In this document: piece after piece, positions 9,269 to 63,361 of the stretch | Layout: each line of letters starts with the position of its first letter | How positions within the stretch are numbered: position 1 is the first letter of the stretch | Assembly (NCBI GenBank): GCA_013816615.1 | Contig: JACDED010000004.1 | Span: forward strand, 6,861-70,860 | Length of the DNA stretch: 64,000 nt | Direction of reading: 5' to 3' | Origin: Bacteroidota bacterium | Lineage (GTDB): Bacteria > Bacteroidota > Bacteroidia > B-17B0 > Aurantibacillaceae | The notes under the pieces: generated by a model | The model's input: the letters and a program-made list of their open reading frames with translations, nothing else | What the model was told of the DNA's origin: nothing | Databases searched by the model: none | Position numbers and translations under genes: made by a program

Positions 9269-9669
9269 TGCGCTGGCTGACAGTAATATTTTTTGTAACA
9301 CTAATTTATTCTGTCAGCTCGCAAACCGTTGTTAATTTAGATACGCTTAAGCTTCCATTACAAACTGAAAATGTTTTTAATAAAGCTTTATTTAGTGATA
9401 GTTTAGCAAGTAGCTTTTGCATAATTATTAAGAACGAAGTAAAGTCACACAAACACCAATATCATAGCGAGCACGTTTATGTAATGGAAGGCGAAGCTCA
9501 AATGCGATTGGGAGAAAAAATATTTAAAATTAAAAAAGGTGACCTTGTATTTATTCCAAAAAATACAATTCATGCTGTTAAAACAACAAGCAAACAACCG
9601 TTAAAGGTTATTAGTATACAAGCGCCGATTTTTGACGGGAAAGACAGAATTATTATAGAAGAAAAATGA
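9268..9669 (+). CDS. secreted cupin-domain protein
   Basis: Signal-peptide-like N-terminus and a cupin core (HKHQYHSEHVYVMEGEAQM...GDLVFIPKNTIHAV). Its start overlaps the upstream stop (TAATG). Confidence 0.75.
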   Translation: MRWLTVIFFVTLIYSVSSQTVVNLDTLKLPLQTENVFNKALFSDSLASSFCIIIKNEVKSHKHQYHSEHVYVMEGEAQMRLGEKIFKIKKGDLVFIPKNTIHAVKTTSKQPLKVISIQAPIFDGKDRIIIEEK

Positions 9670-11735
9670 AAAAGATTATACTATTTATTGCCGCACTGGT
9701 TTCAACCTTAAATTTATTTTCGCAAACATTATTTAGTAATAGTTTTGGGAATTTAATTTTGCAAACATATACTACAAGTTCCAGCTCCGTTGATTATACA
9801 ACTACGCCTTCCATTTTTACCATCATAAAAGATGGTTATAAAAATAACATTGGCTCTGCAACAAATCCAAACAAACCGTTTAATGTTCCCGCTTTTAAGA
9901 CAGAAGGCTGGGAAGTAGTTTATAATCCGGTTGAAAATGATACTTTTTTAGTTTGCACAAGCTGGCTGGATACTGCGGCATCGGTTGACAGATGGATAAT
10001 AACACCTTCTATTACAAATATTACCGCTAACTCTGTTTTAACCTGGCTCGCTAAAAGCCCTGATGTAAATAATAAAGAAAGCTACCTGGTTTATGGTACA
10101 AATAAAACCGGAACATTAACACCACAGGATTTTAATATTGGCGATCAGTTGTATACAAACAACACTGAAAATGATACATGGACAAGACATTCCGTTAATC
10201 TTGCTGCTTTTGCAGGACAAACATTACGTTTTGCATTTCGCGATAATTCTAATAACAAATACCAATTATGGATAGATGATATTGAGATCCTTACATTATC
10301 AAATAATTTAGATGCAGCACTTGTTTCTATTCAAACACCAAAATACGTTCTAACTAATTCGAGCCAAACCATAAGTACAACTATAAGTAACCTTGGCGCT
10401 GCGACTATTAATGCTGTAGCTTTAAATTACCAGATCGGAAATTCTACTGTGCAAACAGAAACAATTAGCTTTAGTAGTAGTGTTGGTTACAAACAATCTT
10501 CACCGGCTACATTTGCATTGGCTTATAATATCAGCTCTGCCGGCAACTATAAATTAAAAACATGGATAAGCGGGGTAAATGGTTCTCCGGATCAGGATCA
10601 TTCAAACGATACCAGCTTTACTTATATCACTATTCAAGGTTCAGCGCCAAAAAAATCAGTTTTAGTTGAACATTTTGTAAGCGCATTTGATGGAGAATGT
10701 TCCGGCGCGCAAGAAAGAATTTTAGCACGACAAAATGATTCTGTTATAGTTGTTAATGTTCACGACCTTGATTCTTTAAAAGAAGCCAATTCAACAGGTA
10801 TTATTTCGGCTTATAAAAAAAACACAGCCACAGCAATGTTCGACAGAACCTTATATTCAAAACCCGGAACTATTGCATCAACACACCCCTATTATGATAG
10901 TTTAATTTACAAACAGCTTCGCAAAATTTCTCCGGCAGGTATAAGTATTGTAAATAAAACATATAATCCAACCACTAAAGAACTATCATTTACTATAAAA
11001 GCCGATTTTATAGGTGACGTAAAAGGTGATCTTAGATTAAATGCTTATTTAACGGAAAATTTTGTACACGGGCCGTGGAATGACACTTTGATAAATGGTT
11101 ACAACCAATTAAATGATTTTTACAATGTGCCATGGTCAGCCTATTATTTAAAAGGTTATTACGCTTCATTATACGGTACTTATGTTTTAAATGGCGTTCA
11201 ATTTCAACACCAAAACACATTAGTATATTCTTTTGATGGTTCTTTTGGAAATCCCGGACTTATACCAACAACAGGTGGCACCCAAAATCAATCGTATCAA
11301 AAAACATATTCATTAACAGTTCCAACAGCAACAAACAACATTAATAAATACACTTCGGATAATTTATACATTGTGGGTTTTTTAGCTGAATATGATGCAG
11401 ATTCAACTAAAAGAAATGTATTAAATGTGGTGAAAGAAAAAATTACACCAAATGGTGAAACGCTTGGTATAAAAGAAAATATTGAAAAGCTTAATGTATG
11501 GGTTTATCCAAACCCTTCAAACGGTACACTCTATTTAAACAGCCCTACACCTGTAAATACATACAAGGTTAAAGTATATGATCTAATGGGAAAATGTGTG
11601 TTTATTGAAGACCTTTTCCAAGTAGGAAATACAGCTATTTTGAATGTATCGCAGCTAAATAATGGTATTTATTTCCTTTCAATAAGCTCTGAAAGCGGCA
11701 ATTTTATTGAAAAAATAGTGATCCAAAAAAACTAA
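9666..11735 (+). CDS. T9SS-secreted protein with C-terminal Por sorting domain
   Basis: The C-terminus YPNPSNGTLYLN...LNNGIYFLSISSESGNFIEKIVIQKN is a typical T9SS C-terminal domain, and there is an N-terminal signal peptide. The N-terminal domain resembles choice-of-anchor-J-type modules, but that assignment has low certainty. Confidence 0.8.
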   Translation: MKKIILFIAALVSTLNLFSQTLFSNSFGNLILQTYTTSSSSVDYTTTPSIFTIIKDGYKNNIGSATNPNKPFNVPAFKTEGWEVVYNPVENDTFLVCTSWLDTAASVDRWIITPSITNITANSVLTWLAKSPDVNNKESYLVYGTNKTGTLTPQDFNIGDQLYTNNTENDTWTRHSVNLAAFAGQTLRFAFRDNSNNKYQLWIDDIEILTLSNNLDAALVSIQTPKYVLTNSSQTISTTISNLGAATINAVALNYQIGNSTVQTETISFSSSVGYKQSSPATFALAYNISSAGNYKLKTWISGVNGSPDQDHSNDTSFTYITIQGSAPKKSVLVEHFVSAFDGECSGAQERILARQNDSVIVVNVHDLDSLKEANSTGIISAYKKNTATAMFDRTLYSKPGTIASTHPYYDSLIYKQLRKISPAGISIVNKTYNPTTKELSFTIKADFIGDVKGDLRLNAYLTENFVHGPWNDTLINGYNQLNDFYNVPWSAYYLKGYYASLYGTYVLNGVQFQHQNTLVYSFDGSFGNPGLIPTTGGTQNQSYQKTYSLTVPTATNNINKYTSDNLYIVGFLAEYDADSTKRNVLNVVKEKITPNGETLGIKENIEKLNVWVYPNPSNGTLYLNSPTPVNTYKVKVYDLMGKCVFIEDLFQVGNTAILNVSQLNNGIYFLSISSESGNFIEKIVIQKN

Positions 11736-14936: not shown

Positions 14937-16214
14937 TTGGCAATCTGCCTGTCTTTTTTTATATTTACCCTATTGAAGCCAATTCTTGAAATAAAGGAAA
15001 TAAGTAAAAAATTCCAGATCCAAAGTAATGCAAAGCCATATTTGAGCCTGAGGGAGAATTTATTCTCTTTTTTAAACCCAGGCTCAAAAAAAGAAGAGTT
15101 TTGGGCCTTAAAAGATATTAGTTTTGATGTTATGCCCGGCGATACGATTGGAATTATTGGGAAGAATGGCGCCGGGAAATCTACTTTATTAAAAATACTT
15201 TCAAAAATCACACCTCCCACTTCCGGTAAAATTATCGGGCGCGGACGTATTGCAAGTTTATTGGAAGTTGGCACGGGTTTTCATCCTGAATTAAGCGGTC
15301 GCGAAAATATTTTTATGAATGGCTCTATTTTAGGAATGCGCCGAACTGAGATCTTAAAAAATTTTGATGCCATTATAGAATTCTCGGGTGTGGAAAAATT
15401 TATTGATACACCATTAAAACATTATAGCAGTGGTATGCAATTGCGTTTAGCTTTTGCCGTTGCAGCTTTTTTAGAGAACGAGATTTTGATCATTGATGAG
15501 GTATTGGCAGTGGGAGACGTAGAGTTTCAAAAAAAATGCATGGGTAAAATGAATGAGGTAAGCAAAAGCGGAAGAACCATTTTATTTGTAAGCCATAGTA
15601 TGAACGCAATACAAAGTTTATGCAAAAAAGGTGTTCTGCTTGAAAAAGGAAAAACAAATGCGATAGAGGATATCAGCACCGTGGTATCTAAATATTTATA
15701 TGGCGATACAACTTCTAATTCGGTTTTCGTTAATTCAAGGATCAATGAAAATAAAGAAGCAGAGATTCTTGAAGCAAGGGTCTTAAATACTGCAAATGAG
15801 CTTGCTTACCGTTTTAGCACAAACGAATTGATAAAGCTAGAAATAAAATGGATAAACAGGGGTGAAAAACTGATCACTCCTAATTTTCTTTTATTAAATC
15901 AAAACGGCCAAAAAGTAATGATAGGTACAGATACTAAAATTGATTGGGACGGAAGTAAAAAATCAAAAAAAGGGATTTACTTAAGTGAGATCATCATACC
16001 AAAAAACCTGCTCAATGCAAATGAGTATTTTTTTCACATCGCTTTAGATTCATCATCTCCAAGTTCAAATTACGACGCACACTTTAATGTTTTTCAGATC
16101 ACAGTTTTTGATCCGTTAGATGAAGGCAGTATTCACAGAGGTGATATTACAATTATGCACCAGGATGTTTCTGTGTGGCCCTCATTAGAATCATCATTTC
16201 AAAAATTAAGCTAG
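14937..16214 (+). CDS. polysaccharide/O-antigen export ABC transporter ATP-binding protein (Wzt/TagH-like) with C-terminal extension
   Basis: Walker A GKNGAGKST, signature YSSGMQLRLAFA and Walker B ILIIDEVLAVGD, followed by a non-ABC C-terminal domain of about 170 aa. The start is uncertain: TTG at 14937, or in-frame TTG at 14973 giving MKPILEIKEISKKF. Confidence 0.85.
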   Translation: MAICLSFFIFTLLKPILEIKEISKKFQIQSNAKPYLSLRENLFSFLNPGSKKEEFWALKDISFDVMPGDTIGIIGKNGAGKSTLLKILSKITPPTSGKIIGRGRIASLLEVGTGFHPELSGRENIFMNGSILGMRRTEILKNFDAIIEFSGVEKFIDTPLKHYSSGMQLRLAFAVAAFLENEILIIDEVLAVGDVEFQKKCMGKMNEVSKSGRTILFVSHSMNAIQSLCKKGVLLEKGKTNAIEDISTVVSKYLYGDTTSNSVFVNSRINENKEAEILEARVLNTANELAYRFSTNELIKLEIKWINRGEKLITPNFLLLNQNGQKVMIGTDTKIDWDGSKKSKKGIYLSEIIIPKNLLNANEYFFHIALDSSSPSSNYDAHFNVFQITVFDPLDEGSIHRGDITIMHQDVSVWPSLESSFQKLS

Positions 16215-16217
16215 CTC

Positions 16218-17327
16218 ATGCAGAAGGAAATTTCTTTTTTTAATACATATGTTAGTCCGAATGCAGCGCAAGGTGTTACAGAATTACTTAACTCCACTTT
16301 TTTAAGTGAAGGAAAAATAACCGAGCAGTTTGAAAAAGAATTATGCAAAATGTTTGATTTTAAAAACATTATTACATTAAACAGTGGAACATCCGCATTG
16401 CATTTAGCTTTAGACCTTCTAAATATTAAAGAGAGCGATGAAATAATTATTCCGGCCCAAACTTTTATTGCAACAGGTTTGGCAGTATTATACTGCAAAG
16501 CTAAACCTGTTTTTGCCGACATCAATTATGAAGATGGGAATTTAAATATCGAATCGGTAAGATCAAAAATAACTTCTAAAACAAAAGCAATTATATGTGT
16601 GCATTGGGGTGGTTACCCATGTAATATGAATGGATTAAAAGACCTGGTCAAAAACACAAACATTAAAATTATTGAAGACGCAGCACACGCTTTAGGTTCT
16701 GTTTATTCAAAAGAAAATATTGGTAACATTTCGGATATTACCTGTTTTTCGTTTCAGGCTATTAAACATTTAACTACCGGTGATGGTGGCGCTATTACTG
16801 TAAAAGATCCGGAGCTTTATGAAAAAGCCCTAAGAAAAAAATGGTTCGGGATCGATAGAAAAAATTCTGCTGTTTCAGAGCTTGGCGAGCGTGAATATGA
16901 TCTTAAAGAGATGGGTTACAAATACCATTTAAATAATTATGCATCTGCTTTAGGCATTGCTAATTTAAGTGGTTATGCCGCACGTTTAAAAAACCGTAGA
17001 GAAATAGCGGATTATTATAAGCAAGAATTAAAAAATATAACTGCATTACAATTATTTAAAGAGGAGCCCGATAATAAAAGTGCTTATTGGCTGTTTGGCT
17101 TACACACAAACAACCGCCCCGAATTAATACGCAAATTAAAAGCCAAAAAAGTACCTACATCCGTAGTTCACCAACGGATAGATAAGAATTCTATTTTTGG
17201 TGGAGCAGATCTTTCTTTAATAAATCAAACAAAATTCGATAACACCCAACTTCATATTCCAATACACGATGCTATTGATATGGAAACGGCAAATTATATT
17301 GTTGATGCAATAAAAAGTTCTGTTTAA
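16218..17327 (+). CDS. DegT/DnrJ/EryC1/StrS family PLP-dependent sugar aminotransferase
   Basis: The family pattern includes the PLP-lysine context FSFQAIKHLTTGDGGAI, and the length (369 aa) is typical. Confidence 0.88.
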   Translation: MQKEISFFNTYVSPNAAQGVTELLNSTFLSEGKITEQFEKELCKMFDFKNIITLNSGTSALHLALDLLNIKESDEIIIPAQTFIATGLAVLYCKAKPVFADINYEDGNLNIESVRSKITSKTKAIICVHWGGYPCNMNGLKDLVKNTNIKIIEDAAHALGSVYSKENIGNISDITCFSFQAIKHLTTGDGGAITVKDPELYEKALRKKWFGIDRKNSAVSELGEREYDLKEMGYKYHLNNYASALGIANLSGYAARLKNRREIADYYKQELKNITALQLFKEEPDNKSAYWLFGLHTNNRPELIRKLKAKKVPTSVVHQRIDKNSIFGGADLSLINQTKFDNTQLHIPIHDAIDMETANYIVDAIKSSV

Positions 17328-52436: not shown

Positions 52437-53264
52437 TCAGAACAAAGATGTTTGAACAATTGCCGCTTGTTTTATAACAGGCTCAATTATTTTGCTGCTA
52501 CCGGTAATATGATAGATCTCTGTTTCATAATCGCGTGTAGCAACAACAATTTTTGTATTCCCACAATGTTCCAGAAATAATTTTTGTACAAGCTGGGGAC
52601 TATTATTTTCTCTCGAAAGATGCGATAACAATAAATGACTTAAATTTTCAGATCTGTGTTTTGTAAAGATCTCTAATGCCTGAACATTGGATAAATGGCC
52701 GTGTCCACCACGAATCCTTTTTTTCAGATAGAATGGATAGCCACCTGTTTCTAAAAGTTCTTCATCATAATTGGCTTCTAAAAAAGCAGCATGGCAATTT
52801 TTAAAATTTTCAATAACATGATGGCAGGCATTTCCAATGTCGGTTAGCACACCAATATTAATACCGTTACCCGAAACAATAAAACTATAAGGATCGGCAG
52901 CGTCATGTAATTTTGGAAATGGTTTTACGGTAAGATCGCCAACAATAATATTTTCATATCCACGAAATGTTCGGATATATTGAACGCCAATATTAAGCTG
53001 GCTATTATTTAATGTAGCATTGGTAATATAAACCGGTAACTTAAATTTTTTTGATAATACTTCCACACCTTTAATGTGATCGCTATGTTCATGCGAAATA
53101 AAAATGGCTTTTACACTTTCAATGGCCAATCCCAGGCGCTTCATTCTTTTTTCAGTCTCGCGACACGAAATCCCGGCATCTATCAACACAGCCTCTTTAT
53201 CATTACCAACGTAATAACAATTGCCGTTGCTGCCTGAGTTAAGGGATGTGATAAAAAGCGACAT
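52437..53264 (-). CDS. MBL-fold metallo-hydrolase
   Basis: SGSNGNCYYV..., HEHSDH metal motif and a downstream H/D ligand pattern. Confidence 0.85.
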   Translation of the reverse strand: MSLFITSLNSGSNGNCYYVGNDKEAVLIDAGISCRETEKRMKRLGLAIESVKAIFISHEHSDHIKGVEVLSKKFKLPVYITNATLNNSQLNIGVQYIRTFRGYENIIVGDLTVKPFPKLHDAADPYSFIVSGNGINIGVLTDIGNACHHVIENFKNCHAAFLEANYDEELLETGGYPFYLKKRIRGGHGHLSNVQALEIFTKHRSENLSHLLLSHLSRENNSPQLVQKLFLEHCGNTKIVVATRDYETEIYHITGSSKIIEPVIKQAAIVQTSLF

Positions 53265-54116: not shown

Positions 54117-56156
54117 TTATACCAATAAAGGTGTTTCTATTTCTGCTATCTGCTGTTGGATCATTTTATCGAATGAAAAATAATTCTCTTTTTTTACAAA
54201 AGCATTTTTATTTATCCATTCCTCCACACTGTATTTGCAAATAAATTCGCCTATCATCTCCTCTTCCATCCTGTTATTACCGGCAAGGTATTCTGCCATT
54301 TTTAAAAGCAATAATTTATTTCTTATTAAAAGCGCTTCCGCTTCTTTTTGGCAAACAGTAATTAAGTGCATGGCTTCTTTATTATAGTGTTCTTTCGTAA
54401 AGAAGTATTCATTGCTGTTGGCACACTCTACAGCAATATGAATTGGATCGCTACCCATGGCATAATACTTAATTGCTTTATTTGCCAGCTCCGTTGCATT
54501 TTCAATATCCGAATAAACACCTGATGATGTATTATCATCGCCAAAAATTAATTTCTCAGCCACAAAACCTCCTAAAGAAATAACAATATCTTTTCTTAAA
54601 ACATCTTTAGTAAAGATCCCTTCAGGAAAATTGACCATGCAAAAACCTTCGCAATTATCACCGGCTGTTTTTGAGATCACCAAAGATGGTAGGATCCTTA
54701 AAGTTAAAGCTGCTAAAATAGCATGGCCCGCTTCGTGCACGGCAGTATGCGCCTGGATATTTTTATTGGTTGTTTTTCTTAGCTCATTGATCTTTAAATT
54801 TATTTTTTCTTCGTAAATGTTAAGAATGTTATTGGCTTCGTCTTTAAAAACAAAAACATATTTCCCATCGCAATAACCCCATTCTACAGCAGTAACCGGC
54901 ATGTTCTTTTCAATACCTTCTACAGCTATTTTTCCGATCCACGATTCTACCAGGTTTTTAACCGTGGTTAAAACCGGGCGGGTACCTTGCGCTGGAAAAA
55001 CACCTTCTTTATAAATAATATCCTTTAAAGAAAATAAATATACCAGCTCAAAACCAAATTGCGTTTTTACAAATTCATTTACGCGTCTTAATTCGCGCGC
55101 TATCAATTGTTGAAAATGCATGTTGTTAAAAGAACGGTAAATAATATGGTTATTACCTAACCTTGCTACCTGCTCGTTTCTGAAACGTTTTTTTAAAGCG
55201 CCTTTAATATTTGCAATGGTGATCTTAGAAGTTGCTTCATAAAGATCATCCGCACTGATATCAGGATTTAAGCTATGGCTCATTTGGTAAGCCTCATCCA
55301 GGTTTCCTAAAACAAAGATCAGGGCTTTTGAAAGATCTAATTGTTTCACGCCTGAACGGGTTTTAACTCCTTCCACAATTAAATGAATAATTCCTTCAAG
55401 ATCTGCTTGCTTTATTTTATTCTCAATTATTTCACGCGATGTCTCGTCGTCGTCATATAAATAGTACAAACCCTGTTCAAAATCTTTCGATAAAAAATAA
55501 TTTTCATCTAAGGCTATGCCATTTCTGCTTTCGCTCTCAAAATAAAATCCGTTAAAAATTTGCAGGAACGCTTCTTTACCATCCGTAACGGCCCCATTCT
55601 TTATACACACATATTTATCTCTTGCTAAAATTAAATTCATTAAACAAGCTTCGGCACGTTTCATATAATATTTGTTACCATTTGGAATGTAATTTATTTT
55701 GCCACTATCCAAAAGATCCCAGATCGCACGCAGTTTGTCTTTACCCAATTCATTACCGTTATTATCCAAAGTACGCGCAAATTGAAACTCATCTAAGCAG
55801 ATCACACTCGGTCTTTCATGAAAATATTCCAGATCATCTGTAAAAGTAGATTTGATCCAGCTTGCAGAATCAGATTCAAATTCACCCATATCCATTTGTG
55901 TGAAATACTTTTTGTGATCCAGCAACTCTACCAGTTTTTGTACCAAAGCTGTTTTACCTGAACCGGTCATGCCCCAAAGATTAATAACGGTTGGACGTAA
56001 TTGTGCTTTCGGAAATAAATACCAGGCACTCACCAAATTCATTACTTCATCAATAACCGAATCTAATCCTATAAAGTAGCTTTTTAATTCTGTCGAAATT
56101 TCGTTCAGCTTTTCTTTTTTGCTGATAATTTCTTTATGCAAATTATTTGTTTCCAT
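54117..56156 (-). CDS. soluble fusion of a Clp-D2-like AAA+ ATPase and an FtsH-type (M41) zinc metalloprotease domain
   Basis: N-terminal half: RPTVINLWGMTGSGKTALVQKL (Walker A in the ClpB-D2 context), ICLDEFQFA (Walker B) and RFRNEQVARLGNNHIIYRSF (parallels FRPEFLNRIDEIIVF). C-terminal third: AVHEAGHAILA (HEXXH) and LGGFVAEKLIFGDDNTSSGVYSDIENATELANKAIKYYAMG (parallels the FtsH GGRAAEE...TGASNDIERAT...GMS). No TM helix is seen. Confidence 0.8.
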   Translation of the reverse strand: METNNLHKEIISKKEKLNEISTELKSYFIGLDSVIDEVMNLVSAWYLFPKAQLRPTVINLWGMTGSGKTALVQKLVELLDHKKYFTQMDMGEFESDSASWIKSTFTDDLEYFHERPSVICLDEFQFARTLDNNGNELGKDKLRAIWDLLDSGKINYIPNGNKYYMKRAEACLMNLILARDKYVCIKNGAVTDGKEAFLQIFNGFYFESESRNGIALDENYFLSKDFEQGLYYLYDDDETSREIIENKIKQADLEGIIHLIVEGVKTRSGVKQLDLSKALIFVLGNLDEAYQMSHSLNPDISADDLYEATSKITIANIKGALKKRFRNEQVARLGNNHIIYRSFNNMHFQQLIARELRRVNEFVKTQFGFELVYLFSLKDIIYKEGVFPAQGTRPVLTTVKNLVESWIGKIAVEGIEKNMPVTAVEWGYCDGKYVFVFKDEANNILNIYEEKINLKINELRKTTNKNIQAHTAVHEAGHAILAALTLRILPSLVISKTAGDNCEGFCMVNFPEGIFTKDVLRKDIVISLGGFVAEKLIFGDDNTSSGVYSDIENATELANKAIKYYAMGSDPIHIAVECANSNEYFFTKEHYNKEAMHLITVCQKEAEALLIRNKLLLLKMAEYLAGNNRMEEEMIGEFICKYSVEEWINKNAFVKKENYFSFDKMIQQQIAEIETPLLV

Positions 56157-56179
56157 TTCTTTTTTTTTTTATTTATAAT

Positions 56180-56266
56180 GTCATTGCGAGGTTATTCTGT
56201 TTTTGCAACCAGGGCTGAAGCAATCTCTTCCACCGACCAGGTTGCTGCGCTATCGCTCGCAATGAC
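56180..56266. repeat. REP-like hairpin element (GTCATTGCGAG ... CTCGCAATGAC)
   Basis: 11-bp terminal inverted repeats plus inner GCAACC/GGTTGC pairing. The TCATTGCGAG...GAAGCAATC word pattern is a REP type I recall as common in Bacteroidota intergenic regions. Confidence 0.6.
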
Positions 56267-56285
56267 GAATTGTTTTAGTTTTTAT

Positions 56286-56915
56286 TTATTCCATGATAAA
56301 TTTTTCGCCTTTATAGATCCTCTTTGGATTTCCACGGCTTAGATCATTATTATTTTTCCATTCGCTGTTAAGTCCTTGTTCGCCGATCTTTTTCTGTTGC
56401 CATTCGGCATGCTTTATCTTTAAACGCTTAACCGCTTCATTTTTATTTTGCAATTGCGATTTATAATTATCGCAGCTGGCAAACAGTCCACTGGCTTTAT
56501 GTATAGCTCTTACGGCGGTTTCTGTTTTGTTCACATGCTGACCTCCGGACCCTGACGAACGCATCGTTTGAAAGCTGATCTCGTTTTCATTCAACTGCTG
56601 TATGTTTGCATTATTTAATTCGTTAATGCCTATATACCAGTTTTTTCGTTTATGAAATTTCCGGTGCGGGCTTTGTGCGATCCATAATAAAACACCCTGC
56701 CATGAATTTAAAAAAACATTCAGGTTCTTACCTTCCAGTTTTAAAGTAGCCGACGATAAAGTACCATTGATATCACCGGCAAAACGCGAAACAACTTCGT
56801 AATGAAATTTATTTGCTTTTGCTTCCGCTATCATTGCCTTTAAAGCCAACGCTACCGCCAAACAACATTCTGATGGGCCTTTAGCTGATGTGAGCTGTAT
56901 TATTTTTGTGTCCAT
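56286..56915 (-). CDS. prfH: peptide chain release factor H
   Basis: 209 aa with GPSECCLAV near the N-terminus, RKNWY, the GGQ loop RSSGSGGQHVNKTETAVR and a C-terminal RGNPKRIYKGEKF. It is collinear with E. coli PrfH as I recall it. Confidence 0.85.
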   Translation of the reverse strand: MDTKIIQLTSAKGPSECCLAVALALKAMIAEAKANKFHYEVVSRFAGDINGTLSSATLKLEGKNLNVFLNSWQGVLLWIAQSPHRKFHKRKNWYIGINELNNANIQQLNENEISFQTMRSSGSGGQHVNKTETAVRAIHKASGLFASCDNYKSQLQNKNEAVKRLKIKHAEWQQKKIGEQGLNSEWKNNNDLSRGNPKRIYKGEKFIME

Positions 56916-56990
56916 TTTATTTTATTTAATTTTTTTATTAATGAAGCGATGCGCCTTTGCATCTGCTTATATTTTTTACTATTACCGTTT

Positions 56991-57023
56991 TCTGCCACCC
57001 TGAACCGATTCAGGGTGACAGAT
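56991..57023. repeat. short hairpin between rtcB and prfH
   Basis: TCTGCCACCCTGAA-CCGA-TTCAGGGTGACAGA. Confidence 0.5.
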
Positions 57024-57042
57024 TAGGTAGTATTACATTTTT

Positions 57043-58446
57043 TCAACGTTTATTCATCCTGACGATCTTCGGCAAAAAGCTTCCTTCTATTTTTACAAGA
57101 TCTTGCTGGCAGCTCATAACTGTTTCAATATCCTTGTAAGCATAAGGCGCTTCTTCTACACTTCCACCAATTAGCTTAATACCCGCAGCCGTTAGCTGAT
57201 CCTTCATAAATTTTTTAGTTATACTTTCACGCGCTTCGGTTCGCGACATTTTTCTTCCTGCACCATGCGAGGCAGAATTTAATGAGCCTGGGTTTCCTAA
57301 ACCGCTCACAATAAATCCACGCGTACACATGCTGCCCGGTATAATGCCTGGTTCGCCTTTAGCTGCCGGTGTTGCACCTTTACGGTGTACAATTAATTCG
57401 CGGCCGTCATGTATTTCTTTCCATGCAAAATTGTGATGGTTCTCGATCTTCGCGATCGTATTTAATCCCATCGCACATTTCATATTTGCATGAATTACAT
57501 CATGACATGCTTTTGCATAGTCGCCTGCTAAGTTCATCGAGAGCCAGTATTCTTGCCCGGCTTCTTCATCCAGGCTTAACCAGGCTAATGATTGTGCTTC
57601 CTTTGGCAACTTACATTTTTGGCTGGCAATTTTTGTGTACATAGCTGCAATTGCTGCACCCATACCACGCGAACCGCTGTGAGTTAACAAGCCCATATAA
57701 TTTCCCGGATCTAATCCAAGTGTATTATCATCGGCAATTGTTACTTCACCGAATTCCACAAAATGGTTTCCGGTGCCCGATGTTCCTAATTGATACCGGG
57801 CTTTGTTATGCAAGCGCTTTAATAATTCTGTCGCCTGAAATTCCGGTCTCTCCAAAATCTCGTGATCAACTTCAAAATCAAGCGTGCCTTCATTTCCAAA
57901 ATGGGTACAACGGCGTAGTGCTTTTTGCAGTTCAAATTCTTTTTTGCGAATATGATCTGCAGGCAAGTCATAAATACTTAAAGCCATGCGGCAGCCAATA
58001 TCCAAACCAACACCAAAAGGGATCACAGCATTTTCCACTGCAAGTACTCCACCAATTGGCAAACCGTAACCGTAATGCGCATCGGGCATTAAAGCGCCCT
58101 TTACTGCAATTGGTAAACGAATAGCCGATTCCATTTGCTTGTAAGCATTTTGCGAAATTTGCTGTTCACCATATACATTAAAACTGCCTGTGTCCTTCAA
58201 CATATGCACTTCGTAATTGGTTTTTAATTTTGGCTTACCAACAAGGGCCCTGGCTAATGGTTCTAAAGCGTGGTGCTCAAGAAAATCTTCAGGTTTTAAA
58301 AGAACGTTTTTTAATATTTCTAGTTTTTCATCATGCGTAGCATGTTTATAATGCTTGGTCATAATATTAAGAGCCAGACTCTTTGCTATATCCGAAGGGA
58401 AATCGATCTTACGCAAGTGTTTTCCCTTCATGCGGTTTTTTCCCAT
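57043..58446 (-). CDS. rtcB: RNA-splicing ligase RtcB (3'-phosphate/5'-OH RNA ligase)
   Basis: 467 aa with LMPDAHYGYGLPIGG, GVGLDIGCRM, GTSGTGNHFVEF, HSGSRG, ENHHNFAW and GSMCT motifs of the RtcB family. Confidence 0.92.
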   Translation of the reverse strand: MGKNRMKGKHLRKIDFPSDIAKSLALNIMTKHYKHATHDEKLEILKNVLLKPEDFLEHHALEPLARALVGKPKLKTNYEVHMLKDTGSFNVYGEQQISQNAYKQMESAIRLPIAVKGALMPDAHYGYGLPIGGVLAVENAVIPFGVGLDIGCRMALSIYDLPADHIRKKEFELQKALRRCTHFGNEGTLDFEVDHEILERPEFQATELLKRLHNKARYQLGTSGTGNHFVEFGEVTIADDNTLGLDPGNYMGLLTHSGSRGMGAAIAAMYTKIASQKCKLPKEAQSLAWLSLDEEAGQEYWLSMNLAGDYAKACHDVIHANMKCAMGLNTIAKIENHHNFAWKEIHDGRELIVHRKGATPAAKGEPGIIPGSMCTRGFIVSGLGNPGSLNSASHGAGRKMSRTEARESITKKFMKDQLTAAGIKLIGGSVEEAPYAYKDIETVMSCQQDLVKIEGSFLPKIVRMNKR

Positions 58447-58632
58447 GTTTCATTTTTTGTTTCGGGCATAGATTTTCCATGACGATGTTATCGCCGATTG
58501 GATAAATGCAAAAAGCATTTTACGATCTTACCCGAAGATTTTTTTTAATAAATTATTTTTTTGTTGTTCCGGATATTTTTTCTGCCTGGCAGAAAAACTG
58601 TTCTAAACTTTATTGGGTTTAGCACAAATAAA

Positions 58633-58655
58633 AAACCCGGCTTTAAACCGGGCTG
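58633..58655 (-). terminator. candidate intrinsic terminator (minus strand)
   Basis: The minus strand reads AGCCCGGTTTAAAGCCGGGTTTTTTATTTG: a short GC stem followed by a T-run. It lies about 300 nt downstream of the thioredoxin-family gene and upstream of rtcB. Confidence 0.45.
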
Positions 58656-58952
58656 AATGTATTGATAATAGCAGACTTCCGGCTTAAGGTTTCGTATTGA
58701 ATTTTGCTACTAACATTGGTTTTTCTTTTTATTTGTTTTAAATGATTATAAATTTCTGACACAAATGTAAATGTTATTTTTTAATTAAAACAAATTAATT
58801 TTTTAAAAAAAGGTGAATTAATTTTTGAATATCTTTCTATGTCCCTCAAAACGTCAGTAAAATCAATACTCGTGAGGCTTAAGTAGAATTATTATAAATT
58901 AAATAAAATATATTCTGACTGAGTGAAGCTCTACTATTTATTTGTGAATATA

Positions 58953-59417
58953 TTAATCATTCATAAATTTTTTAAGTACCGGCGCCATATTTTTTGGAAT
59001 GTTCTCATCCCAGGCACCCCCATCTGTTTTTTTGATCACCTTTCCGTTTGCATCTACACGCAAAAAAGTCGGATACGATCTTACTGCATATTTTGTAAGA
59101 CCTATTTGTTCTCTTTCACCATCAACATCGGCATCGATCATAATAAGCGTAACATCTTTTAAAGCATCCAACATTAACGGATCGTTAAGCGAATTTTTAA
59201 ATTGCTTGCAAGGCCCGCACCAGGTAGCGGTAAAAAACAATACCGGTTTACGTTTAGCCGCTAACTCATTTTTTACAATGATCGATAGTTGATCTTTATT
59301 GGTAGCATTACCATAATAATCTATTTTTTTAATGGTTTCGCTTTTTTTGTACGAAAAGGAAAGGGTCATTAAGACAACACTAATAATTGTGAAAGATTTC
59401 AGGATCAGATGTTTCAT
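58953..59417 (-). CDS. secreted thioredoxin-family protein
   Basis: Signal peptide and the WCGPCK active site. Confidence 0.85.
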   Translation of the reverse strand: MKHLILKSFTIISVVLMTLSFSYKKSETIKKIDYYGNATNKDQLSIIVKNELAAKRKPVLFFTATWCGPCKQFKNSLNDPLMLDALKDVTLIMIDADVDGEREQIGLTKYAVRSYPTFLRVDANGKVIKKTDGGAWDENIPKNMAPVLKKFMND

Positions 59418-59482
59418 GATTTTCTTTTAAAGATACATTTTTTTAAACCCATATTCACATTGTGTATTTACACGGAAATAAA

Positions 59483-60118
59483 CGCCTTGAATCGAGCCTT
59501 TTCGAAATACCTGCCTAGTCAAGGCTCAAGTGTAATTTTAGAACGGCGATAATGCCTAAATATATTAATTGCATTACGTTCTAAAATAACCAACGTGTTA
59601 AAAATTAAAACATAAATCAAATGGAATTTCTTTAAGGCCGAATACTGTGTTTGCTTACGCTGTCGATTCACATTGTGTGCTTACGCGCACTAAAAGCCGT
59701 AAGCACACAGTGGTGGTTTGGCCTCAAAGAAATTCAGTAGATTTTTTGATTTGTTTTTTCACCACGGTAATTCTAAAATGTAAATTAATTTTTGAATTTG
59801 AGCGGTTTTGCCATTTTAGAATTACACTCGAGCCCTGACTAGTCCTTATTTCCAAAGAAGCTCCATTCAGGGCGACGCTAAAAAAAGCAAATCATTAAAA
59901 ATCAAAGAATTTGTTTGTGAGCCTTGATTTTTTGTTTCTTTTTCATCAAGGAAAAAGATATGAAAGAGATTTAAGAAGCCTTTGCTTACTTGAATCAAGC
60001 CAAATTGAGTCTGGAAATATTTAAACATTTTTCATTCCACTTTTTCTTGATAAAAAGTGGAGCAAAAATCAAGGCTGCAAAGAAATTCAAGGATTTATTT
60101 GTTTTAATTTTTCGTCAT
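59483..60118. repeat. 636-bp tandem repeat unit, copy 1 (composite of several sub-modules)
   Basis: Starts CGCCTTGAATCGAGCC. The next copy starts exactly 636 bp later. Confidence 0.9.
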
Positions 60119-60614
60119 CGCCTTGAATCGAGCCTTTTCGAAATACCTGCCTAGTCAAGGCTCAAGTGTAATTTTAGAACGGCGATAATGCCTAAATATA
60201 TTAATTGCATTACGTTCTAAAATAACCAGCGTGTTAAAAATTAAAACATAAATCCAATGGAATTTCTTTAAGGCCGAATACTGTGTTTGCTTACGCTGTC
60301 GATTCACATTGTGTGCTTACGCGCACTAAAAGCCGTAAGCACACAATGGTGGAGGGGCCTCAAACAAATTCAGTAGATTTTTTGATTTGTTTTTTCACCA
60401 CGGTAATTCTAAAATGTAAATTAATTTTTGAATTTTAGCGGTTTTGCCATTTTAGAATTACACTCGAGCCCTGACTAGTCCTTATTTCTAAAGAAGCTCC
60501 ATTCAGGGCGACACTAAAAAAAGCAAATCATTAAAAATCAAAGAATTTGTTTGTGAGCCTTGATTTTTTGTTTCTTTTTCATCAAGGAAAAAGATATGAA
60601 AGAGATTTAGGAAG
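60119..60614. repeat. tandem repeat unit, copy 2 (first 496 bp of the unit)
   Basis: My manual alignment to 59483-59978 gives 11 substitutions and no indels. Similarity breaks after GATTTAGGAAG. Confidence 0.9.
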
Positions 60615-60650
60615 AAAAAAAGAGCAAACAATTAAAAATAGAATTAGTAA

Positions 60651-60692
60651 GTTCCTCCCCCGTCGCTTCGCGCCACCCCCTCTAGCGGGGGA
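60651..60692. repeat. GC-rich REP-like hairpin (CCCCCTCTAGCGGGGG)
   Basis: GTTCCTCCCCCGTCGCTTCGCGCCACCCCCTCTAGCGGGGGA. A second copy lies at 61768-61810 with a different loop (CCCCCTCCAAAGGGGG). Confidence 0.7.
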
Positions 60693-60908
60693 TACTGTGT
60701 GTGCTTACTGTTTATATCCGCGTAAGCACACAATGGTGCTTGGCATTTTAAAATTTCTCGTAAAAAAATCTTAGCCTTCAAAAGGGTTGGCTTGTGTGAA
60801 TTCTACGCGCAGGCTGGCTCAAATGTATCTTAATACATTTGCCCTCTCTCGCGAAGCGCTTAAATCATCCGGCTTTGATGGCTAATGATTTTTAGAGAAA
60901 TTTTAAGA

Positions 60909-61097
60909 AGCCTTGATTTTTTGTTTCTTTTTCATCAAGGAAAAAGATATGCAAAAGATTTAAGAAGCCTTTGCTTACTTTTGGATCAAGCCAAATTGAG
61001 CCTGGAAATTATTTAAACATTTTTCATTCCACTTTTTCTTGATAAAAAGTGGAGCAAAAATCAAGGCTGCAAAGAAATTCCAGGATTTATTTGTTTT
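60909..61097. repeat. second copy of the distal ~186 bp of the 636-bp unit
   Basis: Collinear with 59920-60105 (CCTTGAT...ATCAAGG hairpin, CCTTTGCTTACT, CCACTTTTTCTTGATAAAAAGTGG hairpin), with small indels. Confidence 0.85.
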
Positions 61098-61421
61098 TTT
61101 TTTTAAATCTTTTTAATAGGCACGCAGATGTTTCAGTTTTCCATTTTGATCTTTTGCAGAGATAGTAGCTGTCTAAGCTAGGCGTTTAGTTGAATAGGCA
61201 GATAGAAAAGAGGTTTAGACAGGCTGCGGTCTTTTTTTCGCTGTAGCTACCGCGCGAAAAAAAGAATCTCCTTCAAAAGATCGAAAGCGTTTTGGTTACT
61301 TTTGCGCGCCAAAAGTGACAAAAGAAATTTATTTTTTTTCAAAAAAGAGATTGAGGCATTTCCTCTCCCACCCTCCGGCACCCTTCCGAGGCAAACTCGG
61401 GACAAGTTCTCCAGAGAGGGA

Positions 61422-61731
61422 CATTGTATTTTGCTTACGCGGACTATACACCGTAAGCACACAATGGTGGAGTGGCCTCAAAGAAATTCAGTAGATTTTT
61501 TGATTTGTTTTTTCACCAAGGTAATTCTAAAATGTAAATTAATTTTTGAATTTGAGCGGTTTTGCCATTTTAGAATTACACTTGAGCCCTGACTAGTCTT
61601 TATTTCCAAAGAAGCTCCATTCAGGGCGACGCTAAAAAAAGCAAATCATTAAAATCAAAGAATTTCTTTGTGAGCCTTGATTTTTTGTTTCTTTTTCATC
61701 AAGGAAAAAGATATGCAAAAGATTTAGGAAG
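61422..61731. repeat. third, 5'-truncated copy of the repeat unit
   Basis: Collinear with 59671-59978, from the GCTTACG hairpin through the right inverted repeat and the CCTTGAT hairpin. The hairpin's left arm and loop have diverged. Confidence 0.85.
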
Positions 61732-61767
61732 AAAAAAGTGAGCACAGAATTAAAATAGAATTAGTAA

Positions 61768-61810
61768 GTTCCTCCCCCGTCGCTTCGCGCCACCCCCTCC
61801 AAAGGGGGAC
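61768..61810. repeat. GC-rich REP-like hairpin, second copy
   Basis: GTTCCTCCCCCGTCGCTTCGCGCCACCCCCTCCAAAGGGGGAC. It is preceded by the same AAAATAGAATTAGTAA leader as the copy at 60651. Confidence 0.7.
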
Positions 61811-62168
61811 ACTGAGTGCATTTAATGCAATAAACCCACCACTTGCAAAACAAAAACTACCTCTTATTGAAAGCAATAATTTGCAAGCTCAAAAATAAAT
61901 AACTTTGATCTGTAACTAATGTTCACTTTTTAAATTATATGGTTATGAAACAGATTCTTATAGACGCAGGTACCTACCTCAGCATTGCCGCACTTCTTTT
62001 ATTAGGTTACGGTTTTTTCTTACTTACTATCAGCTAATATTTTGCATCCGGCACACTGTAAATTAAGAGATTTAATTACTCTTAATTTACATTCTTTGCC
62101 TTCATTATTCTGATCGTATTTGTAAGTACCCAATATGGGTTAACCTTAAACAAATTCTTTACAGTTTA

Positions 62169-62340
62169 TAGTTCGCGTGAGCAAACACAGCATAGCGGCC
62201 TTATAAAATTGAACGTTAAAAAATTTTTTTGGCTTTAATTGCGAAAGCGAAAATTTTCCGAACTAGGAGTTCAGTAGCTTCGTGATAAATTTTCGTGCGG
62301 TTTGCGCGGGGAAGCCATGCTGTTTGAGAGCACACGAATT
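62169..62340. repeat. ~170-bp nested inverted-repeat element
   Basis: The outer arms AGTTCGCGTGAGCAAACACAGCATAGCGGCC (62169-62199) and GGAAGCCATGCTGTTTGAGAGCACACGAATT (62310-62340) are imperfect reverse complements. Inner pairs are CGAAAATTT/AAATTTTCG and GAACT-AGG-AGTTC. Confidence 0.55.
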
Positions 62341-62656
62341 TTACCCTGGCTCGAGTTCATGGCTTCAGCTTAAAGCAAAAAGATTTTAGTTCAATTTTAT
62401 GAAGCCTTGACTTTTTTAGTTCCAAACGCACTGTCCGGCTCAATGCTATCGCATTGCCCTTTGTTAAGACAAAAAGTGACGCCAAAATTCATAAGCAAAA
62501 AAGTGAGAACAGAATTAAGAAACTATTTTAATTTCTTTTTAATCCACTTTTTCTTGATAAAAAGTGAAGCAAACAAACCACTCAACAAACTATACCACTT
62601 ATAAAAATGTATTTAAACACTCTAATAAATACATATCTTTGAAATGATCAAACATT

Positions 62657-63361
62657 ATGCATATCAAAAAAGTTAAGCCCGTTTTATTTGTTTTTATGAT
62701 CGTATTATCAGCTTTGCATTTAAATGCGCAGGATAGTCTTCGTAAAAGAAAAGTGTATATAGGCTTTACATTTTCATCTGCCCACTACAGGGCTTTTTTT
62801 CCGGGCCTTCCCGCACAGTCTTCCGAAATACAGGAACGTTTTCCTTATCGTTTTGGTATAGATCTGAAGATAAAATTAACGCAGCAACTAAATTTTACAA
62901 CCGGTTTATTATTTGATGCAACAAGCTTTGTATATGATGTAAAATACGATTATACACCTTCTGCTACTTCACCAAAAACAAACCCTATCGGCTATAAAAT
63001 TATTCGTAAATCTTACAGCATGGGTGTTCCATTGAGATTGGATCTAAAATTTATAAATGCAAATATCTCACCGTTTGCAACAGTCGGTTTTTTTCCAAGC
63101 TATTATGTGGGATCGGATTACCGCATAATTCAAACTTATGAAGATGGGCATGAAGAAAAAGATGGTTACAATAATTTATTTAAAGGTGCTGATAGTTATA
63201 TTAAGATGAATTACCAGATTGGTGCGGGTATTGATATAAATGTAAACAGGTTTAAATTTCAGGTATACCCTTTATATGAATTCGGATTTTTAACCCGTTT
63301 TTCGCCTGCTTATTACTATCACCGCATTGGTGGAGCAATTTCCACTTCTTACGGCTTTTAA
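62657..63361 (+). CDS. outer-membrane beta-barrel (porin-family) protein
   Basis: Signal peptide, amphipathic beta-strand pattern and an aromatic C-terminus (STSYGF). It resembles the 51024-51716 protein in type. Confidence 0.7.
   Translation: MHIKKVKPVLFVFMIVLSALHLNAQDSLRKRKVYIGFTFSSAHYRAFFPGLPAQSSEIQERFPYRFGIDLKIKLTQQLNFTTGLLFDATSFVYDVKYDYTPSATSPKTNPIGYKIIRKSYSMGVPLRLDLKFINANISPFATVGFFPSYYVGSDYRIIQTYEDGHEEKDGYNNLFKGADSYIKMNYQIGAGIDINVNRFKFQVYPLYEFGFLTRFSPAYYYHRIGGAISTSYGF

Follow-up and report, generated by a model that had tools for sequence, protein, structure and literature searches.

Introduction

The described bacterial repeats closest to the locus treated here are short, non-autonomous mobile elements. 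MITEs (miniature inverted-repeat transposable elements) have further MITE-like examples in the Correia and Nezha-type elements, and non-autonomous derivatives of the IS200/IS605 type are marked by subterminal hairpins, by guide RNAs and by leaving no target-site duplications (TSDs). Repetitive extragenic palindromic (REP) sequences are imperfect palindromes of 20-40 bp, tagged at one end by GTAG or CGTC, and their mosaics with other short motifs are known as bacterial interspersed mosaic elements (BIMEs; PMC3733652). A Porphyromonas gingivalis MITE is reported to contain a minisatellite (PMC4596501), and the FopS small RNAs (sRNAs), about 65-70 nt long and with canonical promoters, occur in Bacteroidaceae only (PMC11697453). 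Here we analyse a 3,239-nt repeat zone (59418-62656) in a 64,000-nt stretch, hereafter the window, from the genome of an uncultured Bacteroidota bacterium (assembly GCA_013816615.1, contig JACDED010000004.1). The zone is probably a nest of non-autonomous MITE/BIME-like elements, locally enlarged by inverted (foldback) and tandem duplication.

The zone is flanked by divergently transcribed genes for a thioredoxin (Trx)-family protein (58953-59417, minus strand) and an outer-membrane beta-barrel protein, or porin (62657-63361, plus strand). The remaining window is ordinary chromosome and, as an original prediction made from the letters alone had described it, densely coding: it holds a polysaccharide-synthesis cluster, UvrC, HisRS, GAPDH, two-component systems and one tRNA-Leu. 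The same prediction took the zone either for a place where small non-autonomous mobile elements nest or for a locus that encodes multiple structured RNAs or arrays bound by proteins, and the evidence below favours the first of these.

A mosaic of repeat modules

All the repeats that had been listed for the zone are present, at or within about 10 nt of where they had been placed. The 636-bp unit is followed by a second copy of its first 496 bp (59483-59978 against 60119-60614: 97.8% identity, with the predicted 11 substitutions and no indels). Its last ~186 bp recur at 60909-61104, with 94.9% identity to 59920-60112 over 196 aligned columns, indels included, and the third, 5′-truncated copy lies at 61432-61731 (95.0% to 59678-59978). 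The two GC-rich hairpins with their common leader fall within the pair 60314-60701 and 61432-61818 (93.3%), and the degenerate echoes foreseen at 62400-62580 include 62519-62573, which is 85% identical to 61005-61058. Two stretches that had been treated as unique turned out to be repeats as well: 62171-62413 is 77.5% identical to positions 1458-1703 of a metagenome contig (L123; comparison records carry such L numbers), and 61126-61193 matches the same contig in reverse at 87%. Chance is ruled out, with BLAST E-values among copies going down to 0 and 1e-165; for the short test patterns used in this work, 0.00-0.02 matches are expected by chance in dinucleotide-preserving shuffles.

About six types of module (H, C, an arm pair, M1, P2 and D) make up the mosaic of the zone, in varying orders. 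The H hairpin, 30-31 nt, consists of GTGTGCTTACGC, a loop and GCGTAAGCACAC; it has four exact-pattern copies plus remnants, and its right arm CGYGTRAGCAMAC is kept even where the pairing partner is absent. C is a GC-rich hairpin with an A-rich leader before it, whereas the arm pair is formed by GGCCTCAAAGAAATT pairing with a distant AATTTGTTTGTGAGCC. P2 in the window reads AGCCTTGA, a T-run, a stem, the loop ATCAAG and the returning stem; M1 is an outer stem enclosing CTGTYTGA, a small stem and GAGTT; and D comprises GGCTCAAAT, a small hairpin and TTGCCC. On its left, the 636-nt unit starts with 157 nt (59483-59639) that repeat the right arm in inverted form at 72% identity; its right end is an inverted P2, and a single strand of the unit is predicted to fold into two long foldbacks (-222.7 kcal/mol, z = -16.8). 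These abundant units have lost M1, which is intact at 62308-62369. We scored P2 with a covariance model, R1, and M1 with a second model, R2. The repeat features of the zone are as follows.

59453-59474 (no strand assigned): degenerate H-type half-hairpin ATTCACATTGTGTATTTACACG, 86% identical to 59666-59687 and 60302-60323; the leftmost remnant, 36 nt from the Trx start codon
59483-60118 (plus): unit 1, 636 nt, made of foldback A (59483-59868, with a double H at its tip, 59641-59716) and foldback B (59869-60118)
60119-60614 (plus): unit 2, which repeats unit 1 over its first 496 nt (foldback A and the left half of B)
59919-59963, 60555-60599, 60908-60952 and 61672-61716 (plus): P2 module, 58-61 bits with R1, E about 1e-12
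60033-60077, 61025-61069 and 62540-62573 (minus): inverted P2, the first of them forming the right arm of foldback B; 65.3, 65.3 and 31.8 bits with R1
60615-60745 (plus): A-rich leader with GC-rich hairpin C (about 60650-60700) and H (60698-60735)
60814-60846 (plus): D module GGCTCAAAT, read from the sequence
60909-61104 (plus): solo foldback B
61126-61193 (minus): module common with the metagenome contig, inverted; matches the reverse strand of L123:1363-1431
61290-61321 (plus): weak P2-type hairpin GGTTACTTTTGCGCGCCAAAAGTGAC, 19.5 bits with R1, E = 0.007
61345-61731 (plus): third, 5′-truncated copy, with hairpin C′, H (61432-61462), right arm and P2; 95% to 59678-59978 and 93% to 60314-60701
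61732-61818 (plus): second leader with GC-rich hairpin C, repeat family 88%
62171-62495 (plus): diverged copy with the full architecture, namely H right-arm remnant, left arm, M1 (62308-62369), right arm, AGCCTTGAC, an inserted D and AAAAAGTGAC
62484-62585 (no strand assigned): leader echo (62484-62527) and inverted P2 hairpin, the right edge of the repeat zone

R1 gave nine matches in the window at E < 0.1, all within the zone, and neither R1 nor BLAST found the modules again in the other ~61 kb of the window. On 764 kb of unrelated loci R1 gave one match only, in a Bacteroidia metagenome-assembled genome (MAG, L093) discussed below. The P2 at 59919-59963 was in the training set of R1; the other three plus-strand modules were not entered, but 60555-60599 scores identically. 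The inverted P2 at 62540 was outside that set too (E = 7e-6). The M1 of the diverged copy reached 49.4 bits with R2, having itself been among the sequences on which R2 was trained.

The spacings between repeats are irregular (636, 353, 764 and 1118 nt). A CRISPR array was considered and rejected on this irregularity, together with an empty result from Tandem Repeats Finder and no cas genes nearby. A diversity-generating retroelement was likewise rejected: the 11 substitutions between units 1 and 2 are mixed (A>G, A>C, G>A, T>A, T>G, G>C, G>T, C>T) and not adenine-specific.

That the zone has no convincing protein gene, as originally claimed, holds for the repeats and fails for one short open reading frame (ORF) outside them, 61945-62037, described further on. 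All six frames of the repeats yield stop-ridden ORFs only, and the gene callers predict none. The repeat ORFs are all at most 96 aa and each is broken in other copies, so that neither a protein-coding gene nor a pseudogene is recognisable, and the substitution pattern, a check put forward with the prediction, reveals no coding frame in the repeats. A 770-aa composite of 14 repeat-derived pseudo-peptides, designed to catch spurious ORF calls made over related repeats, had no match at E <= 1 among 5.8 billion proteins.

Copies in the genome and in metagenome contigs

A search for the modules elsewhere had also been suggested, and they do recur. The pattern formed by CGTAAGCACAC, 8-14 nt and CCTCAAAGAAATT matches four contigs (L123-L126) of metagenome Ga0075163. 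BLAST finds the same modules in the same order in these contigs, in L093 and at L002:15029-15154, which is a further site in the same genome, roughly 5 kb past the right end of the window. The order C-then-H, for instance, is seen again in L093:910-1000 (77%), L125:358-411 and L002:15029-15154. Module order is thus kept between copies despite identities of 70-88%, and the neighbours of the other copies are unrelated: an extracytoplasmic function (ECF) sigma factor, an acetyltransferase, a hydrolase, a transporter and miaA. The copies are always intergenic, in either orientation, and some lie downstream of convergent genes.

Insertions are nested within copies. The L123 copy contains a D module and the perfect 18-nt palindrome TCCCGATAGCTATCGGGA, and D-type modules occur inside the window at 62425-62460 and as insertions in L123:1130-1170. 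At L123:1181-1198 the palindrome is placed exactly between the AGCCTTG and the TTTTGGTTAC of a P2 module, an insertion that suggests a separate class of very small palindromic elements.

A looser scan of genome contigs with TGCTTACN{8,22}GTAAGCACAC gave at least 119 stretches from all phyla and was too unspecific to be of use; among the matches listed for it, the sole real relative was L093. Viral contigs had no match to three specific patterns, and the phage collection had none by BLAST. Upstream of one metagenome copy, at L124:3375-6580, is a two-gene pair that may be a defence system: as judged by eye, its 747-aa product has a P-loop-like motif, and the other product, of 321 aa, has an HNH-like region rich in cysteine.

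A wider family of P2 and M1

The P2 and M1 sub-modules occur in plasmids of 8 genera in two phyla. With the P2 region as query, nearly all plasmid matches were in Bacteroidota (Parabacteroides, Haliscomenobacter, Aureibacter, Persicobacter, Fulvitalea, Marivirga and Chondrinema). Persicobacter plasmids matched in 36 places and a megaplasmid of Ilyobacter polytropus (Fusobacteriota) in 13, while a Sulfurovum plasmid had one short 42-nt match. Across the family, P2 takes the form CTTGA, T-run and an 11-bp stem with loop TCAAG. Compact copies from Parabacteroides, Haliscomenobacter, Aureibacter, Chondrinema and Ilyobacter consist of a long hairpin with M1 at its tip, followed by P2, and the Persicobacter and Marivirga copies have only the P2 region in common with them.

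Both modules show covariation in an alignment of eleven copies. The M1 stems, predicted independently by RNAalifold, pair in 84% of cells against 58% after shuffling and carry 36 double-sided changes against 10.6 (0 of 500 shuffles); slid controls pair at 31-49%. For P2, double-sided changes are found in 8 of the 11 stem pairs (0 of 500 shuffles), and neither CTTGA nor the loop TCAAG changes in any copy. We do not claim an H-type pseudoknot in P2: the CTTGA/TCAAG pairs are invariant and hence uninformative, and because no linker follows the second strand, the two helices are more likely to be alternatives to each other.

Two plasmid copies deserve separate mention. In Aureibacter tunicatorum plasmid pAT6 (L138:2313-2555) a compact copy with M1 and P2 occupies the space that separates cas7d from cas5d in a type I-D CRISPR-Cas operon; a search for this junction in its empty state yielded no homologous locus at the DNA level. 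In Marivirga sp. plasmid p1 (L129:300-770) there are three loosely tandem units of about 120-130 nt, each starting with a P2-like hairpin ACTTTTTCTWGMYAAAAAGTAT. They occupy a region without genes close to where the plasmid record starts, and could be iteron- or origin-like.

Evidence for mobility and proposed history of the array

Signs of transposition come from Persicobacter. Its P2-bearing element, about 415 nt, has common ends that are sharp in four aligned copies, with an 18-bp terminal inverted repeat (TIR), CA(C/G)GGCTTTTTCATAAAA, and 9-11-bp TSDs around three of the four copies (TAGCTATGG, AAGCGTTTTA and ACAGTGCTTA). With these features, the element is a classical cut-and-paste MITE.

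For the zone itself, we compared three assemblies of the same organism. Outside the tandem part their agreement is 99.6-99.9%; inside it, both the count and the type of units vary. The assembly GCA_020064125.1 (L002) has U0-U1-U2′, the window has U1-U2′, and GCA_020063865.1 (L131) has a U0-like unit and then U2′. U0 is 612 nt long with a simple H hairpin, and its alignment to U1 contains 17 mismatches and 30 gap columns. The two units start with an identical 151 nt, so that the alleles are explicable by unequal recombination or by an assembler loop. A comparison of the locus between strains had been advised at the outset, and the three alleles fit the repeated recombination or insertion then proposed. 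The short-read assembly Logan SRR11719871 is interrupted at 59540 and again at 61770.

Taken as a whole, these data argue for the nest of MITE/BIME-like elements, and in this respect the original prediction is supported: modules are dispersed over a second genome site, other Bacteroidia and plasmids, palindromes are nested in copies, and a relative has TIRs and TSDs. The copies sit at unrelated sites, as those of MITEs do, and are non-coding and short by the MITE measure of under about 600 bp, with cores of about 300-400 nt and units of 612-636 nt. We propose that founding copies would have transposed into the site through a transposase acting in trans, whose gene would lie elsewhere in the genome, as the Persicobacter element suggests by analogy. 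Local inverted duplication would then have made the long foldbacks A and B out of a copy; small palindromes would have inserted into older copies; and homologous recombination or replication slippage between units would have produced the 612/636-nt tandem array. The DNA between the flanking genes may be nearly neutral, and the site would tolerate repeats because each of the two genes keeps a promoter box of its own, no more than about 25 nt from the start codon. The covarying stems could reflect selection or self-correction acting on single-stranded DNA (ssDNA) hairpins or paired ends, for which an RNA function need not apply.

Several observations weigh against this reading. For the window's own copies we found no TIR, TSD or empty/filled orthologous site; similarity runs past the long internal arm pairs, leaving the true ends undefined, and neither the window array nor the metagenome copies are flanked by a recognisable TSD. 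There is no transposase gene in the 64-kb window or beside any copy examined, and copy counts for the source organism cover about 73 kb of its genome. The covariation and invariant loops of M1 and P2 across two phyla exceed the needs of a fast-decaying selfish element and would also fit a functional RNA or a protein/ssDNA recognition structure. Finally, the difference between two and three units could be an assembler loop artefact.

Alternative explanations

A wider idea, tentative and on balance improbable, is that M1 and P2 are working parts of an undescribed functional nucleic-acid element common to Bacteroidota and Fusobacteriota. One form could be a structured RNA, guide or regulatory, carried on mobile DNA, with a K-turn-like internal loop (M1 CUGUYUGA/GAGUU; P2 CUUGA, U-run, loop UCAAG); another could be an ssDNA recognition structure for a transposase or recombinase. 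The covariation is undecided between RNA and DNA, because paired transposon ends and ssDNA hairpins co-evolve too. If such an element exists, the window array would be a set of active and decayed copies and not inert junk.

On the favoured reading, the locus itself would be an ordinary outcome, selfish hairpin repeats accumulating in tolerant intergenic space, and its practical effect is that the zone breaks short-read assemblies and that unit counts differ by assembly. The family is the part worth following up: M1 and P2 span Sphingobacteria-like MAGs, Bacteroidales, Saprospirales, Cytophagales and a Fusobacteriota megaplasmid. If the motifs were transposase recognition structures or RNA parts, they would define a widespread mobile-element or RNA class, and M1 and P2 would also be a handle for annotating much "empty" intergenic DNA of Bacteroidota.

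Multi-copy structured non-coding RNA genes, or cis-acting RNA structures of a guide or regulatory type, would make the zone a tandem cluster with decayed copies. Covarying M1 and P2 stems with invariant loops, conserved across Bacteroidota and one Fusobacteriota plasmid, are what such RNAs would show, and multi-copy sRNA families such as FopS do exist in Bacteroides (PMC11697453). We nevertheless consider this unlikely. At the gathering threshold, Rfam 15 recognises only the tRNA-Leu in the whole window. Even at E <= 1 no family matches the zone or six other copies beyond far-sub-threshold chance hits: plant microRNA hairpins, Whalefall-1 (21 bits against a threshold of 37) and Fibro-purF (22 bits against 60). 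Neither strand asymmetry nor orientation bias is seen: plus and minus folds are equally stable, and by our own tally about six copies are co-directional with the downstream gene against four opposed. The ratio of G-T to A-C mismatches in the tested stems (12 to 6) is not decisive. Within the repeats there is no consistent Bacteroidota promoter box, the -7 motif TANNTTTG occurs in the window at chance frequency, and promoter-like sites of the sigma-70 type and terminator-like sites are not enriched over chance. The abundant window units are without M1, and the P2-bearing relative in Persicobacter is a DNA transposon with TIRs and TSDs. The RNA half of the predicted either/or is thus weakened, although the stems do covary.

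Less probable still is an array for protein binding or recombination, in which the P2 arms and H would bind a recombinase, nucleoid protein or regulator, and so control the divergent genes or drive phase or copy-number variation. The layout of P2, an 11-6-11 inverted repeat with the invariant core TCAAG and an equally invariant CTTGA upstream, would suit such a site, as would the H right arm conserved without its partner, the alleles that differ among assemblies and the position between divergent promoters. On the other hand, the same modules stand beside unrelated genes in any orientation, which argues against a regulator specific to the Trx/porin pair, no recombinase or regulator gene is adjacent to the zone, and both flanking genes have promoter-like boxes outside the repeats.

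An error of assembly that collapsed or expanded the repeats or joined them chimerically has a next to negligible chance of being the explanation: the short-read breaks, the variable unit count and the 151-nt start that could loop an assembler speak for it, but the window, GCA_020064125.1 and GCA_020063865.1 agree except in the first tandem unit or units, U0 is a sequence distinct from U1, and homologous modules occur in unrelated records that include finished plasmids.

Flanking genes and other features of the locus

The porin gene is preceded by a -7-type box, TATCTTTG (62634-62641), conserved in a relative (L127), and a similar box, TATCTTTA (59428-59435, minus strand), was read before the Trx gene. 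With these putative boxes, the repeats would fill the space between two self-sufficient promoters. The porin is 100% identical to P0001 of a 76-kb MAG contig. In L127, whose porin is 78% identical, only 147 nt lie upstream of the porin, next to a different neighbour, and homology to the window begins at about 62590.

One further feature of the zone lies outside the repeats.

61945-62037 (plus): conserved 30-codon hydrophobic ORF MKQILIDAGTYLSIAALLLLGYGFFLLTIS, with a -7-type box TAACTTTG at 61900-61907

L127:1669-1761 encodes the same peptide with one S-to-N change, all other differences being synonymous. This ORF passes the synonymous-bias test and, on that measure, is the only convincing gene of the zone. 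It lies upstream of the porin in the window and downstream of it in L127, a shift that points to rearrangement at the locus. Candidates for its product are a small membrane protein and a peptide resembling type I toxins.

Beyond the Trx-like gene, the 506 nt up to RtcB (58447-58952) hold short overlapping ORFs only. RtcB, an RF-1-family (PrfH-like) protein and an FtsH-type M41 peptidase are consecutive at 54117-58446 (minus strand), and the trio also adjoins RtcB in two relatives (L133 and L135), so that it looks like a conserved RNA-repair or ribosome-rescue-type cluster. No related repeat lies near RtcB in the relatives L133-L135, whose RtcB identity is 77-82%. One of them (L135, MAG GCA_018267825.1, RtcB 77%) has gene-free stretches of 2.4 kb (7598-10000) and 1.6 kb (15225-16884) beside the RtcB cluster; these have no similarity to the window repeats, and a contractile-injection or phage-tail-like gene set is nearby. 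Among housekeeping neighbours at 52437-53264 (minus strand), a metallo-beta-lactamase-fold gene has a precomputed match to the Anti-Pycsar Apyc1 family (PF23023).

Comparison with known systems

FopS-type sRNAs share with the zone modules that they are paralogous, intergenic, multi-copy, non-coding and found in Bacteroidota. The zone modules are longer, without promoter boxes or strand bias and without reported similarity to FopS, and we reject an sRNA of this type on size, promoter and taxonomic range.

With IS200/IS605 derivatives, M1 and P2 have in common that their function would rest on single-strand hairpins with conserved loops and covarying stems, and the compact Chondrinema, Ilyobacter and Aureibacter copies have no obvious TSD. 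There is no TnpA or TnpB gene near any examined copy, and the IS605-orfB and HEARO models of Rfam do not match. To our knowledge, the IS200/IS605 family never makes TSDs, whereas the Persicobacter relative does.

The likeness to REP and BIME is closer. The zone too has extragenic palindromes clustered with other short motifs, in both orientations, beside convergent or divergent genes and variable between strains, and its palindromes alternate with conserved motifs (H, C, D, P2 and the arm modules), as in a BIME. The zone modules are larger, however (45 to about 390 nt against 20-40 bp), and span phyla, whereas REP families are usually species-specific. The H hairpin fits REP in size but has neither the GTAG nor the CGTC tag, and no gene for the REP-associated Y1 transposase (RAYT) is present in the about 73 kb of the source genome that were covered.

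The limited literature search that we made, on MITE or REP families of Bacteroidota and Fusobacteriota and on the motif strings, returned nothing matching the family. Compared with MITEs, the window copies lack a demonstrable TIR or TSD and an identified partner transposase, the window is a mosaic of interchangeable modules and not one element with fixed ends, and two internal modules with covarying stems conserved across phyla are unusual for MITE interiors. In other respects the correspondence is good: MITEs, like the window copies, are small, non-coding, intergenic and multi-copy, form long hairpins at unrelated loci and may carry internal tandem repeats. The repeat family thus appears to be undescribed, though the kind of feature is well known.

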